The position numbers and the translations under genes were made by a program. A stretch of 40,749 nucleotides of DNA, taken from a virus. Lineage: Duplodnaviria; Caudoviricetes. Location of the stretch: the IMG/VR virus record IMGVR_UViG_3300033076_000803, positions 1-40,749 of that record. The stretch is one strand, 5' to 3'. Below are positions 31,595 to 37,852 of this stretch, piece after piece (position 1 is the stretch's first letter; each line of letters begins with the position of its first letter). The notes under the pieces were generated by a model that did not search any database, had not been told where the DNA came from, and saw only the letters and a list, made by a program, of their open reading frames with translations.

Positions 31595-31987
31595 ATGCGT
31601 GACGAAATCGGAACAAAAGAAGACGGACAGGAAAAAATCGTGAGTATCGCACCGAGTATCAGCGCCCGCGATCTAGCGCGCGAATTCATCCACCAAGACG
31701 CGGCTTCCTGCGGCGGTGTGGAGCCTGCTAAGCGGGCTCTTGCTCGTCGGCTAGGGGTAGCGCCCGGCACGATCAAAAACATGGCTGGCGGTCGTTTAAA
31801 GCGCATCTGCGCTGACGTTTTTGCCCGCATGAAGGCTGAGCAAATCCGCCGTCTGAACATCTCGCTACAGAAGGCAGAGCATGAGCTTCAAGTTTCTCGC
31901 GCGTGTGGTGTGGACCCGCGTTCAATTGAGTTTCTGGCGTTGGAAGCTGCGGTTGAAGCGGCTCGCAAAGTGAGGGAAGGCGCATGA
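31595..31987 (+). CDS. HTH regulator at the cII position
   Basis: ALARRLGVAPGTIKNMAGGRLK; downstream of cro and tR1. Confidence 0.7.
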   Translation: MRDEIGTKEDGQEKIVSIAPSISARDLAREFIHQDAASCGGVEPAKRALARRLGVAPGTIKNMAGGRLKRICADVFARMKAEQIRRLNISLQKAEHELQVSRACGVDPRSIEFLALEAAVEAARKVREGA

Positions 31988-32613
31988 CCTGGGGTATCGC
32001 TACACAAGAACCAACAAGCGGCCACGAGGCATTGCAGCGTGTCTATGCTAATCACGCCAAGCGCCGGGCCATGTTTGCTTATAGGCCTGAACCAGTAGAG
32101 CCGCCACGGCCAAGCCGTGAACAGCTTTACGCTGATTATGTGGCCGAACAGCAGCGCCGCGACCGTGAAGCATGGGCGGCGTATATGTCGAAATGCATCG
32201 CCAAAGCGCGGGAAGACAAGGCCAAGGCGCAAGAGATTGTCATCGAACAGCCGCCGCTGTCATTCGATGATGAGCCAATCATCTTCGGCCCGCTGGATCA
32301 CATCAAGCTTCGCAAGCCATTACCCCGCGAAATGACAGCGCCCGGTTATCTGCGGCGCATTGTGGCATGGGTTGCAGACAGATACGGCTTCACGCCGGAA
32401 GAAATCTACGGCAAGCGCCGTTCGCCCGACATTGTTCGCGCTCGCCATCTGGCTATCCAGATGATTGCGCACTCGAAGCGCCTCAAGTGCATGTCGCTGC
32501 CTGAAATCGGCAGGCGCATGGGTGGCCGCGACCACACGACAATCCTTCACGCAGCGCGCAAGGCTCCGTCATATCGCAACGCTCGGAAGCCGAACCCATG
32601 GCAATGCCGATGA
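31984..32613 (+). CDS. Protein with DnaA C-terminal (domain IV, Bac_DnaA_C) DNA-binding domain
   Basis: EEIYGKRRSPDIVRARHLAI...SLPEIGRRMGGRDHTTILHA signature; no AAA+ motifs. Confidence 0.9.
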   Translation: MTWGIATQEPTSGHEALQRVYANHAKRRAMFAYRPEPVEPPRPSREQLYADYVAEQQRRDREAWAAYMSKCIAKAREDKAKAQEIVIEQPPLSFDDEPIIFGPLDHIKLRKPLPREMTAPGYLRRIVAWVADRYGFTPEEIYGKRRSPDIVRARHLAIQMIAHSKRLKCMSLPEIGRRMGGRDHTTILHAARKAPSYRNARKPNPWQCR

Positions 32614-34081: not shown

Positions 34082-34260
34082 TGGCTGCCATCGTTGCGGG
34101 GATAGTTCTTTTTTGCATGGGCATCATCGGCGTTTTTGTTTCTGGTAGCCTCGTGGGAGCGGCGATGCGGGAAGATAATCGCAGGGCAGGATATCAAGCC
34201 ATATACTGGGGTCTGTTTTTTACCGCCCTCGTCGTCTTGGCTCACTGGGTGGCAAAATGA
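34081..34260 (+). CDS. Two-TM small membrane protein (59 aa; not in the ORF track)
   Basis: MAAIVAGIVLFCMGIIGVFVSG...AIYWGLFFTALVVLAHW; coupled at both ends. Confidence 0.6.
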   Translation: MAAIVAGIVLFCMGIIGVFVSGSLVGAAMREDNRRAGYQAIYWGLFFTALVVLAHWVAK

Positions 34261-34784
34261 CAGTCATCACCATCCTGCCACCACGCCGCGAACGCAACGG
34301 ACGCAAACAACGGCCAACAACCAAGGCTGATATTGAAGCTGCCCAACGCGCTCGTGAGGAAGCCGAAAAGGCTACCGTGCTTGCACAACCTCACCGCAGG
34401 GGCAACACTGACCAGCGCTGTGAGAACAACGCTGGTCGCTACATGATGCACCTACAGCAGCATTCTTCATGGCAGCCGCAATGCCAGGATGCCTATGACG
34501 AGTTGCGGGGCATCGTGCGACGGTGGCGCAATCTCAAGGGGCTCCCCGATCCTGAGACAAGCCGGTATCGTGAGGGCGGGGCTGGTGATGTTGACGAGGC
34601 TTTGCTGAACCGTCTGCATGGCCGCTGGCAAGATGCGATCCATCATGTGTTCAACATGGCGGGTGATCAGGAGGGGACAATCGTGCAGTCATTGTGCGAG
34701 AACTACAAAGCCCCGCCTCCGCATAATGAACGCAAGGCAATTCGCGGGCTTGTGAGTTTGGCAAGACATTTCGGAATGTTGTGA
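34257..34784 (+). CDS. Putative late-gene regulator (Q position)
   Basis: Last early-right gene before the late non-coding region; RERNGRKQR...VLAQPHRRG...GLVSLARHFG; function from synteny only. Confidence 0.55.
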   Translation: MTVITILPPRRERNGRKQRPTTKADIEAAQRAREEAEKATVLAQPHRRGNTDQRCENNAGRYMMHLQQHSSWQPQCQDAYDELRGIVRRWRNLKGLPDPETSRYREGGAGDVDEALLNRLHGRWQDAIHHVFNMAGDQEGTIVQSLCENYKAPPPHNERKAIRGLVSLARHFGML

Positions 34785-34800
34785 ATAACTGGCATGACGC

Positions 34801-34829
34801 TTGCAACGCGCGAGAGAGTGTGATTGATT
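34801..34829 (+). promoter_or_regulatory. Candidate late promoter
   Basis: TTGCAA-17 bp-TTGATT just after the Q-position gene; weak -10. Confidence 0.4.
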
Positions 34830-34839
34830 GTCAGTTAGC

Positions 34840-35350
34840 AACGGTGGTGATTTGCGCCGTGATGTAGGTTTTGCCCGAATGGGCTGGATTACCCACCTGT
34901 CGCGTGTCGGCAGGCCCTAGCCAAACGGCTAGCGTATAGCCCCGGCCTCTGGTGGATCGCCCGTGAGGGAAGCAGGATCGCTACGCCTCACGCGGTTACG
35001 CGGAAGCGCTTGCCAGCCTAGGACAATGGCGAGCGTCGGGGCAAGAAATTCGCCAGCAATGGCGTGCAAGTTGGGGACGACGACCGCCGTTAACCCGAGC
35101 GAGGCGCGATTTTGCAAGAGCGCCGCGAGGTTCCGAAGCGGAAGCGTAATACACGGGCGAGGGCCGTGGCCCCTTGAGTTTCGCCAGTGATGGCATAAAA
35201 GTTAGCGCAGTGCGTGCAGCGTGAGCGGCGCAAGACCAGTCGAAAGACGAACAGCCAAGGTGTCGGCCCAAGCTGCGCTAAACTCAACATGACAGAGGCC
35301 TCTGGCAACCGCTACGCCTCTGTCTTCGTCTTCCCTGCCATGTGTAGGGC
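34840..35350 (+). ncRNA. Large highly structured non-coding RNA candidate, family unassigned
   Basis: No credible ORF; at least 12 hairpins, several with GNRA loops on the + strand; nested long-range helices; duplicated internal motif (see findings). Confidence 0.7.
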
Positions 35351-35550
35351 TAGCATTCGTCCTCGGTCCTAGGATCGCGGACAGCTTTCACAAGCTTGAT
35401 AAGCCGCAACAGTAGCGCAAGTGTGGATGGATCGGGGTTTCGCCCTTGCTCCCAATGTGAGTAGGTCCGCAGCGAAACACCTAGCGTAGCAGCGGCTACA
35501 GCTTGTGAGGCTGTGCCGCGCCATGCTTTGAGAGTTTGGGCGAGGGTCAT
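35350..35550 (-). CDS. XRE/HigA-like HTH protein
   Basis: LKAWRGTASQAVAAATLGVSLRTYSHWEQGRNP. Confidence 0.85.
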   Translation of the reverse strand: MTLAQTLKAWRGTASQAVAAATLGVSLRTYSHWEQGRNPDPSTLALLLRLIKLVKAVRDPRTEDEC

Positions 35551-35717
35551 TGGCCGGTAGCCTTGGCGGGATGAGGCAAGTGCAATTGAATTGCAAAATA
35601 TACGCTGCCGTCTGGCTCTTGCTCCATGACAGTATAACCGCTTACTTGTTTCCAGCCGCGAAAATGGAGCATGATTAGGTTAAAGATAAGACGGGCGGTT
35701 GAAACACTTCCCCTCAT
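35547..35717 (-). CDS. Hypothetical protein (56 aa; not in the ORF track)
   Basis: AGGAG RBS in the end of the upstream gene; MRGSVSTARLIFNLIML...; ATGA overlap with the HTH gene. Confidence 0.6.
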   Translation of the reverse strand: MRGSVSTARLIFNLIMLHFRGWKQVSGYTVMEQEPDGSVYFAIQLHLPHPAKATGQ

Positions 35718-35720
35718 CGT

Positions 35721-35942
35721 TTACTCCTGTGGCTTAAAAAAGCTGGTTGTGAAAGATTTTACACCGATATCCTTGTGGGCATCATCAACATGCACACGAA
35801 CGATGTCAGCCCCGCGAACGTCTTTGGCGGCTCGCCGCGCAAACTTTATGGCGTCAGCCTTGTTTCCAGTGAAGTGATACGGTTCTTCAAGCGTGCCGTC
35901 GGCAGTCTCAAACCGAAGGGCGTAGCGGGCTGCGTTGTTCAT
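35721..35942 (-). CDS. Hypothetical protein, first gene of an antisense cassette
   Basis: 73 aa, GGAG RBS, promoter upstream. Confidence 0.7.
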   Translation of the reverse strand: MNNAARYALRFETADGTLEEPYHFTGNKADAIKFARRAAKDVRGADIVRVHVDDAHKDIGVKSFTTSFFKPQE

Positions 35943-35969
35943 CTGCGTTCTCCGTTGCTGATGAACATA

Positions 35970-35998
35970 GGTATATACCCGTGACGGGTAGTTTGCAA
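35970..35998 (-). promoter_or_regulatory. Sigma70 promoter with palindromic operator
   Basis: TTGCAA-17 bp-TATACC; perfect palindrome TACCCGT-G-ACGGGTA (35976-35990) in the spacer. Confidence 0.75.
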
Positions 35999-36171
35999 CA
36001 ACAATCTGCGCAACAAAATTGCGTTTTGTTCAACATCACAGACAAGCGTTGAGCATGACATTCATCGCAGGCTTCATTGCTGGCGTGTTTAGCTGCGCTT
36101 GCATCCTCATTATCAGCTTTCAATGTCTATCGCGGGAGTTGTCCCGCTAACACTCCACAAGGGTGAAGGTG

Positions 36172-36483
36172 ATGGCGACTAGCAATAAAGAATTGCCGAT
36201 TGCTGCAAAGCGCAAGCCGCCAGCGGCGGGCATGGGTAGGCCGAAGGGAACGCCGAACAAAACTACGGCATTGCTCAAGGATGCCATTCTGCGCGCTGCT
36301 GACGAGGCGGGCGGGGCTGAGGGGCTTGTTGGTTATCTCCGGGTGCAGGCGGTCGAAAATCCCGGCCCGTTCATGACGCTGCTTGGCAAAGTGCTGCCCA
36401 TGCAAGTGACGGGCGCGAACGATGGCCCGCTACAGATCGTAATCAAGAAATTCGAAATTGCCTCAGATCGTCCTGCCGAATAA
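36172..36483 (+). CDS. terS: Terminase small subunit
   Basis: GRPKGTPNKTT...FMTLLGKVLPMQVTG motif; overlaps the terL start. Confidence 0.85.
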   Translation: MATSNKELPIAAKRKPPAAGMGRPKGTPNKTTALLKDAILRAADEAGGAEGLVGYLRVQAVENPGPFMTLLGKVLPMQVTGANDGPLQIVIKKFEIASDRPAE

Positions 36484-37852
36484 CTGGCAGCCGCGCTGGT
36501 ATCAGTTGCCGCTGTGGCGCGGCTTGGAAACAAAAAGGCGCGTAATCGAGATTGCCCATCGGCGCTGGGGCAAAGACGATGTGATGCTGCACAACGCGGC
36601 AATCAAAGGACTAGAGCGCCCGGCCACATATTGGCATTGCTTGCCAGAATATGAGCAAGCCCGCCGCGCGATTTGGAACGCTGTTAACCCGCATACGGGG
36701 AAGCGGCGCATTGATGAAGCGTTCCCTCGTGAGATTGTCTCGCGGCGGAATGACAACGAAATGCTTATCGAGCTTGTCAGCGGTTCGACATGGCAAGTTA
36801 TCGGGTCAGACCGATACGATAGCCTAGTTGGCGCTGGCGTTGCTGGTGTGACGTTCTCTGAGTGGGCTTTGGCCAATCCTTCAGCGTGGGGCTACATCAA
36901 GCCCATGGTGGAGGAAAACAACGGCTGGGCTGCATTCATCACGACGCCTCGTGGCAAGAACCACGCCAAATCCATGTTGGATATGGCGCTAAAGAACGAT
37001 GATTGGTTTGCTGAAGTCTCGCCAATCTCGGTTACGAAAGCGCTATCACAAAAGCAACTTGATGAAGCGCTGCTAGAGTATCAAGCGCTGTTTGGCCACG
37101 ACGCAGGCCAAGCGCTGTTTGATCAGGAATATTATTGCTCGTTCGATGCCGCTATTCCAGGCGCATACTATGGCCGCGAAATGGCGCTGGCCACATCGAC
37201 CGGCAGGATTTGCGATGTCCCGGTTGTTTCGGGTGTTCCGGTCCATACCGTATGGGACTTGGGCAAAGGCCAGAACATGGCCATCTGGTGCTTTCAGGTT
37301 ATCGGCGAGTGGGTTCACCTTGTCGATTATCTGTCTGGTCAGGCGGCGTATATTCCGGACTATGTGAAGCTGCTGGACGAGCGCGGTTATCGCGGTGTTG
37401 ATATTGTGCCGCACGACGCAAGAGTTGCAGAACTTGGGACCGGCAGAACCCGCGTTGAAACGCTTGTAAGCCTTGGCAGGCACCCGATTGTCTGCCCGAT
37501 GCATAAGGTCGATGACGGCATTAACGCGGTGCGCATGACGCTCCCGCATTGCAGGTTTGATATTGTCAAGACTGCCGCTGGTGTTGAAGCCCTTCGCCAA
37601 TACGAGCGCGAATGGGACGACAAAGCGAAGATGTTCAAGGATGTGCCAAGGCACAATTGGGCATCGCACCCCGCAGACGCATTCCGCTATCTCGCCATGT
37701 CTTGGCGAAAGGTTGTGGCCAAAGAACCGCCGCCGCCGCCAAAGAACGAACTGATTTTCGAAGCTGACGAACTCGGCAGGGTAAAGGGCAACCTTTCCAT
37801 TCGTGAGATTGTCGCATTGAAGGAAAAGCGCCGCAAAAATGGAAGCTATTGA
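36458..37852 (+). CDS. terL: Terminase large subunit
   Basis: Walker A-like HRRWGKD, Walker B-like VTFSEWA, TTPRGKN, nuclease motifs WDLG and HPADAFRY. Confidence 0.95.
   Translation: MPQIVLPNNWQPRWYQLPLWRGLETKRRVIEIAHRRWGKDDVMLHNAAIKGLERPATYWHCLPEYEQARRAIWNAVNPHTGKRRIDEAFPREIVSRRNDNEMLIELVSGSTWQVIGSDRYDSLVGAGVAGVTFSEWALANPSAWGYIKPMVEENNGWAAFITTPRGKNHAKSMLDMALKNDDWFAEVSPISVTKALSQKQLDEALLEYQALFGHDAGQALFDQEYYCSFDAAIPGAYYGREMALATSTGRICDVPVVSGVPVHTVWDLGKGQNMAIWCFQVIGEWVHLVDYLSGQAAYIPDYVKLLDERGYRGVDIVPHDARVAELGTGRTRVETLVSLGRHPIVCPMHKVDDGINAVRMTLPHCRFDIVKTAAGVEALRQYEREWDDKAKMFKDVPRHNWASHPADAFRYLAMSWRKVVAKEPPPPPKNELIFEADELGRVKGNLSIREIVALKEKRRKNGSY

Follow-up and report, generated by a model that had tools for sequence, protein, structure and literature searches.

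The lambda 6S transcript is 194 nucleotides (nt) long, and HK022 put is an RNA of about 70 nt with two hairpins. GOLLD and ROOL, as PMC12286853 describes them, are large, helix-rich RNAs of phages and prophages whose function is unknown and which are often found near transfer RNA (tRNA) genes; GOLLD has a variable and a conserved half, and both assemble through kissing loops and A-minor contacts. The element discussed here was proposed as a structured RNA at 34840..35350 by a sequence-only reading of a 40.7-kb virus record that is rated complete (we call the whole of this stretch the window). Like GOLLD and ROOL it is large, helix-rich and phage-encoded; it differs from them in having no Rfam match at E values up to 10, in lying in a genome with no tRNA genes, and in that its conserved part is central, within a chain of swappable units for which no pseudoknot is established. 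Like HK022 put, it is a structured RNA directly after a phage promoter, but it is far larger and has no Rfam match. With the circularly permuted group II RNAs it shares the character of a large structured bacterial RNA (PMC8637638, in whose main text the word ‘phage’ does not occur).

In its layout, the locus resembles the lambdoid pR'-tR' leaders with Q, and AlpA, where a regulator gene, a promoter, a short untranslated transcript and packaging genes are combined (as described in PMC9371919 and PMC6266700). As in Q-dependent pR'-tR' leaders, a predicted sigma70 promoter with a conserved downstream element stands directly after the regulator gene. However, the leader in the window is about 550 nt long, highly conserved, rich in GNRA loops and without a strong intrinsic terminator, and the support for its regulator as a Q protein is weak. 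The terGTA region of the Caulobacter gene transfer agent, as presented in PMC11150451, likewise brings together an alphaproteobacterial packaging operon, an antiterminator-type regulator and, close to the start of the operon, direct repeats that are GC-rich and about 130-150 nt long; those repeats are near-identical, stand after the first gene and appear by eye unrelated in sequence, whereas the units in the window are diverged and GNRA-capped.

Our preferred reading, to which we assign a probability of about 40%, is that the element is a conserved chain of non-coding RNA domains, probably transcribed from the predicted late promoter as a discrete RNA of about 550 nt, which would serve as a stable protein-binding decoy or scaffold, an expanded form of the pR'-tR' type. 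We infer its transcription, ends, folding and partners alike. The broader proposal of a plus-strand, non-coding, structured RNA under selection at the RNA level is supported by an enrichment of GNRA loops together with natural variation, and conservation as an RNA motif appears well supported by the sequences compared, at a shallow depth of homologs.

All 17 helices drawn in the sequence-only reading are found exactly where it placed them, with only Watson-Crick or G-U pairs; two of them both use base 35280, so that one loses a pair. The gap was also said to lack a credible gene, and this holds. It is overlapped by four short open reading frames (ORFs), of which the two that were searched (minus strand 34929-35117 and plus strand 34963-35190) have no homolog, the latter also having no PHROG match. 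Among relatives in the Logan contigs, natural 1-nt indels at 35087, 35115, 35196 and 35252 disrupt the reading frames, and the GTG start at 34963-65 is lost in most runs, both of which argue against coding. The GNRA loops on the plus strand, on which the case for an RNA had partly been built, prove to be strongly enriched: eight hairpins of at least 3 bp carry one, compared with 1.15 ± 1.06 in 2000 dinucleotide shuffles, none of which reached eight, while the minus strand has none. This count is the genome maximum over 510-nt windows (mean 0.99).

Part of the RNA stretch occurs in Logan contigs of 20 of 22 listed runs, from 13 studies, and the core at 34889-35063 is 96-99% identical in all eight runs that were aligned. 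No RNA data set appears among the listed runs with the stretch, X19 being labelled as probably DNA. Because the helices had been drawn before any variant was seen, they provide a fair test of the substitutions. Of the 14 substitutions listed, none disrupts a drawn pair or a GNRA loop (null mean 3.15 disruptions, P 0.018), and the five that fall in GNRA loops all keep the GNRA pattern (null 0.28). A substitution at 35014 gives a G-U pair, and the loop changes in unit 1 (34939..35072) and the change at 35243 keep GNRA. Stronger evidence of selection on structure comes from kept helices with swapped inserts. The helix 35203/35273 persists around an interior that is either a loop of 2-4 nt (X6 and one X13 contig) or other sequence (X11, X13 and X19), and in an X13 contig three A-to-G changes in the 5' arm of the 35291/35316 helix still pair with the 3' arm of the window, the contig gaining a GNRA-capped inner hairpin. 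At the 5' side, conservation begins at 34844 in X2, X3 and X8, whose differing upstream letters extend the first hairpin to 10 pairs (read by eye at loose ends of contigs), and in contigs of X3, X9, X13 and X19 the 5' module as far as 34889 is another one. The upstream regulator gene is without cover in four runs, where the contigs turn into other sequence at 34844 or 34889.

Several results weigh against this picture. Folding stability is not significant (z of -1.46 and -1.70 for the minimum free energy, MFE, and -1.41 for local folding), other windows of the genome reach -4, and the full structure model of the sequence-only reading lies 11 kcal/mol above the MFE; the sub-region 35174-35330 alone reaches -2.8. 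A folding z-score without significance is one of the outcomes that the sequence-only reading itself had named as refuting its proposal. The case thus rests on GNRA enrichment and natural variation, and not on stability. The eight aligned runs, from seven studies, were chosen for sharing words with the RNA, which inflates its conservation relative to its neighbours, and the divergence in the displayed pieces, 2.4% for the RNA compared with 7.9% and 8.5% for the gene cassette beside it, carries this bias in favour of the RNA. The substitution test covers the 14 listed changes, with 15 further rows and 80 pieces from four runs left out and two X9 transversions unplaced, and the variants, being those of related phages, are not independent. 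Under an automatically filled-in structure model three of the 14 substitutions are disruptive (null 4.28, P 0.29); one predicted pair is lost through 35134 C>G. No double-sided compensatory changes were counted among the Logan contigs, where the homologs are too close. The proposed 3' end lacks a strong intrinsic terminator, its U run at about 35386-88 being weak, and the Q-like identity of the regulator appears weak in structural alignment (Z under 5). Taken to the extreme, there might be no functional RNA at all, and the hairpins would be incidental or DNA-level features of recently exchanged DNA. The folding z-scores would agree with this, and the high identity could stem from recent transfer together with the selection of runs, but we think it very improbable: the GNRA hairpins (8 compared with 1.15) are confined to the plus strand, changes concentrate in GNRA loops and keep them, other changes keep wobble pairs, and inserts are swapped inside kept helices.

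On the structure models, the RNA is a chain of self-contained, swappable domains and not one RNA closed end to end. An enclosing helix 35073/35326 had been drawn, but it has a pair probability of 0.0 and is 3 kcal/mol worse than local closure, and we rejected it as disfavoured against the local closing helix of unit 2 (probability 0.87-0.99); in an X8 contig exactly 35073-35173 recurs in a different setting, matching that local helix.

The chain, all on the plus strand, begins with a replaceable domain 0 (34844..34893), comprising a hairpin at 34844-49/34855-60 that holds a conserved TGCGCC (34853-58) and a second hairpin at 34873-84, and continues with two stable hairpins (34896-914 and 34917-32, pair probabilities 0.91 and 0.99) whose only listed variant lies in a loop (34926). 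Unit 1, the conserved multibranch core, is closed by helix 34939-44/35037-42 and contains a GNRA hairpin (34960-69), a hairpin at 35007-35 with a palindromic loop (35017-22) and, beyond the closing helix, a GYRA hairpin (35051-64). Unit 2 (35073..35203), an optional imperfect repeat of unit 1 closed by helix 35073-76/35170-73, has a palindromic loop at 35112-17 and then a GYRA hairpin at 35183-94. It is followed by a domain with a swappable interior (35203..35287, closing helix 35203-10/35273-80) and by a 9-bp hairpin (35291..35324, pair probability 1.0), whose flanking motif repeats 34944-52 and 34979-89; an exact 11-nt repeat is shared between the flank of this hairpin and the 34944-34989 region. 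This two-part motif flanks different inner hairpins on its two occurrences (34944-34989 and 35297-35320) and persists in a relative whose inner hairpin is new, which makes it a candidate protein site or tertiary receptor. It should also be noted that 34927-31 can pair with either 34918-22 or 34937-41, and that the second pairing would open the closing helix of unit 1, a possible switch. An MFE pairing of 34963-68 with 34986-91 was rejected, since the common variant 34965 G>A would break it.

Units 1 and 2 form an imperfect tandem repeat of about 132 nt: 34939-35072 aligned with 35073-35203 scores 84, compared with 51.8 ± 5.4 in shuffles (0 of 1000), and without the shared terminal hairpin the alignment scores 57 compared with 44 (15 of 1000 shuffles). 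In each unit a junction domain precedes the GYRA hairpin, which is the same in both, and each has a palindromic loop, the hexamer of which occurs three times in the genome, twice in the element. CTAG is also enriched (5 compared with 0.67 expected), as was noticed post hoc. Forms without unit 2, that is unit 1 alone, occur in six of the eight runs; unit 2 without unit 1 in front occurs in X8 and, weakly, in X3 (a 27-letter side); and both units stand together in the window, X2 and X9.

Such modularity would also be expected if the element were a patchwork of independent small RNA modules behind a strong promoter, spread by recombination and separately processed, without a joint function. Relatives do show the self-contained domains in new arrangements or with replacements, no helix that would close the RNA end to end holds up, and the neighbouring cassette is mosaic as well. 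We nevertheless find a patchwork doubtful, as most contigs keep the domain order, unit 1 and unit 2 are paralogs, one motif recurs twice, and the core and the 3' end have a candidate 8-bp contact. In this contact the apex 35366-73 complements the unit-1 loop 35017-24 and is its sole 8-nt complement on the plus strand of the genome, with a chance of about 0.12 that any of six loops has such a complement.

The RNA likely extends from 34836 to about 35388, or about 550 nt. Its predicted sigma70-type late promoter (plus strand; -35 at 34801-06, 17-nt spacer, -10 at 34824-29) was read from the sequence and would start transcription at about 34836; a simple promoter scan made no call at 34801..34829, and relatives with a different upstream sequence have a five-of-six match to TATAAT at the same spacing (at loose ends of contigs). 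The probable 3' end (35334..35388, plus strand) comprises hairpins at 35334-51 and 35359-82 and a short U run, and overlaps the end of a minus-strand helix-turn-helix (HTH) gene. In an X3 contig the stretch 35325-35385 is retained before the sequence diverges, and in one X2 contig 35385 is linked to 36025 (intervening letters unknown); because this stretch travels with the RNA in diverging or jumping contigs, the 3' end likely falls at about 35385-35388. In the sequence-only reading the element ended at 35350. An extension to 35568 was rejected, that block being the HTH gene.

The gene upstream of the promoter (34257..34784, plus strand) encodes a putative late-gene regulator of 175 aa, with a DUF6456-related lead and a possible Q/AlpA/GafZ-like role. 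It has 23 sequence matches including itself, and a DUF6456 cluster is among its neighbours in the atlas (feature score 0.94, 46% of members). GafA homologs are annotated as DUF6456 (as given in PMC9638019), and the antiterminator GafZ is homologous to the C-terminal part of GafA (as given in PMC11150451). Searches of the regulator gave no Pfam, PHROG, PDB-sequence or Foldseek match. VIA-align gave weak alignments, below the trust level, to AlpA (Z 4.6, root-mean-square deviation 3.3, 81 aligned) and to Q21 (Z 4.3, deviation 3.8, 86 aligned), which span most of each chain.

In the window the TGCGCC motif lies 52 nt after the -35, and this layout, a -35 with a TGCGCC-type motif downstream, is present after the same regulator gene in 11 of 19 IMG/VR loci compared with a background of 8.9%, by a rule derived post hoc from these same loci and with one match (L014) at another offset. 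What fills the slot behind this promoter varies. In seven of the 19 loci an intrinsic terminator runs from the TGCGCC motif (an eighth match lies upstream of the gene end), and in three there is a stable RNA, namely tRNAs in L021 and L024 and a DUF3800-VII RNA in L016; one of the RNA scans of the slot covered 18 of the 19 loci and the other all 19. In L012-L016, L022 and L029, the regulator gene is followed by the conserved promoter, the TGCGCC-type motif and a GCCCGG/CCGGGC terminator, an arrangement that would give this unannotated family of DUF6456-related regulators a late switch like lambda pR'/tR'.

The main rival to a decoy or scaffold is a cis-acting gate in the nascent late transcript, either a non-canonical terminator or attenuator overridden by the regulator, or a put-like antiterminator. 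The element takes the place of the intrinsic terminator that in the seven relatives starts from the shared TGCGCC, one or two unit copies stand directly after the promoter, and no terminator-like site was found on the plus strand between 34823 and 36007. There is also a precedent: three GC-rich repeats, each of 150 bp, act as transcription terminators that GafZ bypasses (as reported in PMC11150451). However, no relation to the terGTA repeats is seen by eye, a terminator would hardly need a near-invariant sequence with GNRA loops, a hairpin with a U run at 36008-32 could terminate instead, and a Q-type protein would make an RNA antiterminator redundant. We regard a gate as a real possibility, though a less probable one. 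A trans-acting decoy or scaffold is favoured because the slot holds stable RNA cargo in relatives, because the units are additive and interchangeable, and because conservation exceeds the needs of termination, the element being far more elaborate than the terminator used in the slot by the seven relatives.

Were the RNA such a decoy or scaffold, the promoter would fire without the regulator, as lambda pR' does, to give a short transcript ending at about 35388 or at the hairpin and U run at 36008-32, and the upstream Q/AlpA/GafZ-like protein would let the polymerase continue into terS-terL-portal. Each unit of about 130 nt, a junction domain with its GYRA hairpin, would fold compactly through docking of the GYRA loop into C-G helices, a contact known from group I and II introns and RNase P. 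The interchangeable, additive units would be binding sites in repeated copies, titrating a protein of the host or of a rival phage, and the palindromic loops may dimerise the RNA. In a bolder version, which we hold to be rather improbable, the element would represent a new class of phage RNA machines built of interchangeable domains of about 130 nt, made constantly from the late promoter even in the lysogen and forming an RNA-only multimer through palindromic kissing loops and GYRA docking, which would trap a host or defence protein with an avidity set by domain copy number; the palindromic loops at 35017-22 and 35112-17 are candidates only for kissing-loop contacts.

Large ornate phage RNAs such as GOLLD and ROOL are among the few abundant bacterial RNA classes without a known function. 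The present locus offers two handles not available for them. Variants occur in nature that carry either unit by itself or the two together, and these define the functional module. The element also occupies a defined regulatory slot, with relatives that carry a plain terminator or tRNAs, so that action in cis or in trans can be decided by reporters and complementation. If it acts in cis, alphaproteobacterial phages would have in it a transcription gate of a new kind; if it acts in trans, it would be a modular RNA decoy or scaffold.

The sequence-only reading could assign the RNA to no family, and comparison with the covariance models of Rfam 15 bears this out, with no match at the gathering score and, at E up to 10, only two weak matches to small nucleolar RNAs on the minus strand. 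The RNA is new in that it is a member of no Rfam 15 family, large structured phage RNAs being already known as a kind. ARAGORN called no tRNA or transfer-messenger RNA (tmRNA) genes in the window, and neither a family-model match nor an ARAGORN call pointed to RNase P, tmRNA, signal recognition particle (SRP) or 6S RNA; a resemblance to SRP helix 8, RNase P loops and group I elements is unsupported by Rfam. We found no description of this RNA in the literature. It may have been listed before in a catalogue of over ten thousand viral RNA candidates (PMC10690425), of which four of the six listed supplement files gave no match and the alignments lay outside the search.

These comparisons also bear on a new ribozyme class, self-cleaving or ligating, that would process the late transcript. 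High conservation, GYRA loops and multibranch junctions are features of tertiary-folded RNAs and would suit a ribozyme, but no Rfam ribozyme matches at E up to 10, and the core motifs of hammerhead, group I, group II domain 5 (D5), hepatitis delta virus (HDV)-like ribozymes and RNase P that were looked for are absent from the plus strand. More specifically, a pattern search found no D5 motifs and Rfam no group II match; for a group I intron the P7 core motifs are absent, the element is intergenic, with no interrupted host gene, and Rfam again gives no match; and the plus strand has no core words of the hammerhead or HDV type, also with no Rfam match. Single loose twister and pistol words occur on both strands of the element, as word matches only. 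We regard a ribozyme as very unlikely.

Homologs of the RNA were found only in the Logan contigs. A blastn search of INPHARED phages gave none; plasmids gave two chance 30-nt matches outside the RNA; successive IMG/VR pattern searches gave 0, 4 and 53 loci, all judged chance; and JGI metagenomes and GTDB genomes gave none. The whole records of five related phages contain only short chance matches to the RNA, and single-sequence covariance models found no homolog among 73 and 26 other loci. These negatives hold for collections from which very near records may be missing.

The window carries integrase, terminase, portal and major head genes (PHROG). The closest terminases come from Rhizobium, Bradyrhizobium and Acetobacter phages (58, 54.5 and 52% identity) and the closest plasmid-borne integrase from Rhizobium; from this kinship we infer a temperate phage of Alphaproteobacteria. 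The RNA had been placed at the start of the packaging operon, and it does lie downstream of a probable late promoter, but an oppositely oriented gene cassette intervenes: about 780 nt separate it from terS, with a minus-strand HTH gene and a 73-aa ORF between them. The convergent XRE/HTH_3 gene (35350..35550, minus strand; Pfam HTH_31 E 2.5e-8, HTH_3 E 8.3e-8; PHROG matches) lies outside the RNA except for the overlap, and the 73-aa ORF heading the cassette (35721..35942, minus strand; 5 homologs, 56-69% identity) lies wholly outside it. The putative terS (36163-36483, plus strand) is named by position and matches PHROG 11043 (unknown function), and the terminase large subunit (36458-37852, plus strand) matches PHROG 2.

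This neighbourhood raises the question of a virion or packaging-motor RNA similar to phi29 pRNA. Predicted late expression upstream of terS-terL-portal and self-complementary loops would be in keeping with such a role. On the other hand, the phage has a standard large terminase, the core model is unmatched in the other loci searched, including four with related terminases, and the RNA is kept while its flanking genes vary, so that we give a packaging role hardly any credence.

The reverse cassette (35350-36057) holds the 73-aa ORF, a possible 56-aa ORF, the XRE HTH gene, a promoter-like site of its own and a palindrome at 36008-24. It is about 90% conserved in several metagenomes and apparently missing from one contig, and it would be a moron-, immunity- or toxin-antitoxin-like module. 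Elsewhere, in the replication region, a 209-aa protein (31984-32613) contains a DnaA C-terminal HTH (PF08299, E 1.6e-18).

Other long, mostly gene-free gaps occupy the slot after the regulator gene in relatives (L016:1831-2550, L018:3498-4000, L021:960-1690 and L008:3173-3723); that of L016 contains extra GNRA hairpins besides the DUF3800-VII RNA, and that of L021 a tRNA-Arg. In Rhizobium phage RHph_I3_18 (L010:3370-3900; MN988542 ~42370-42900) an unannotated gap before terS, with no match in Rfam or to the RNA of the window, has a folding z of -2.29 and an enclosed domain of about 160 nt, which makes it a testable analogue in an isolated phage. Finally, the ARAGORN tRNA-His at L024:4255-4326 has the anticodon ATG, which is unusual for bacteria.
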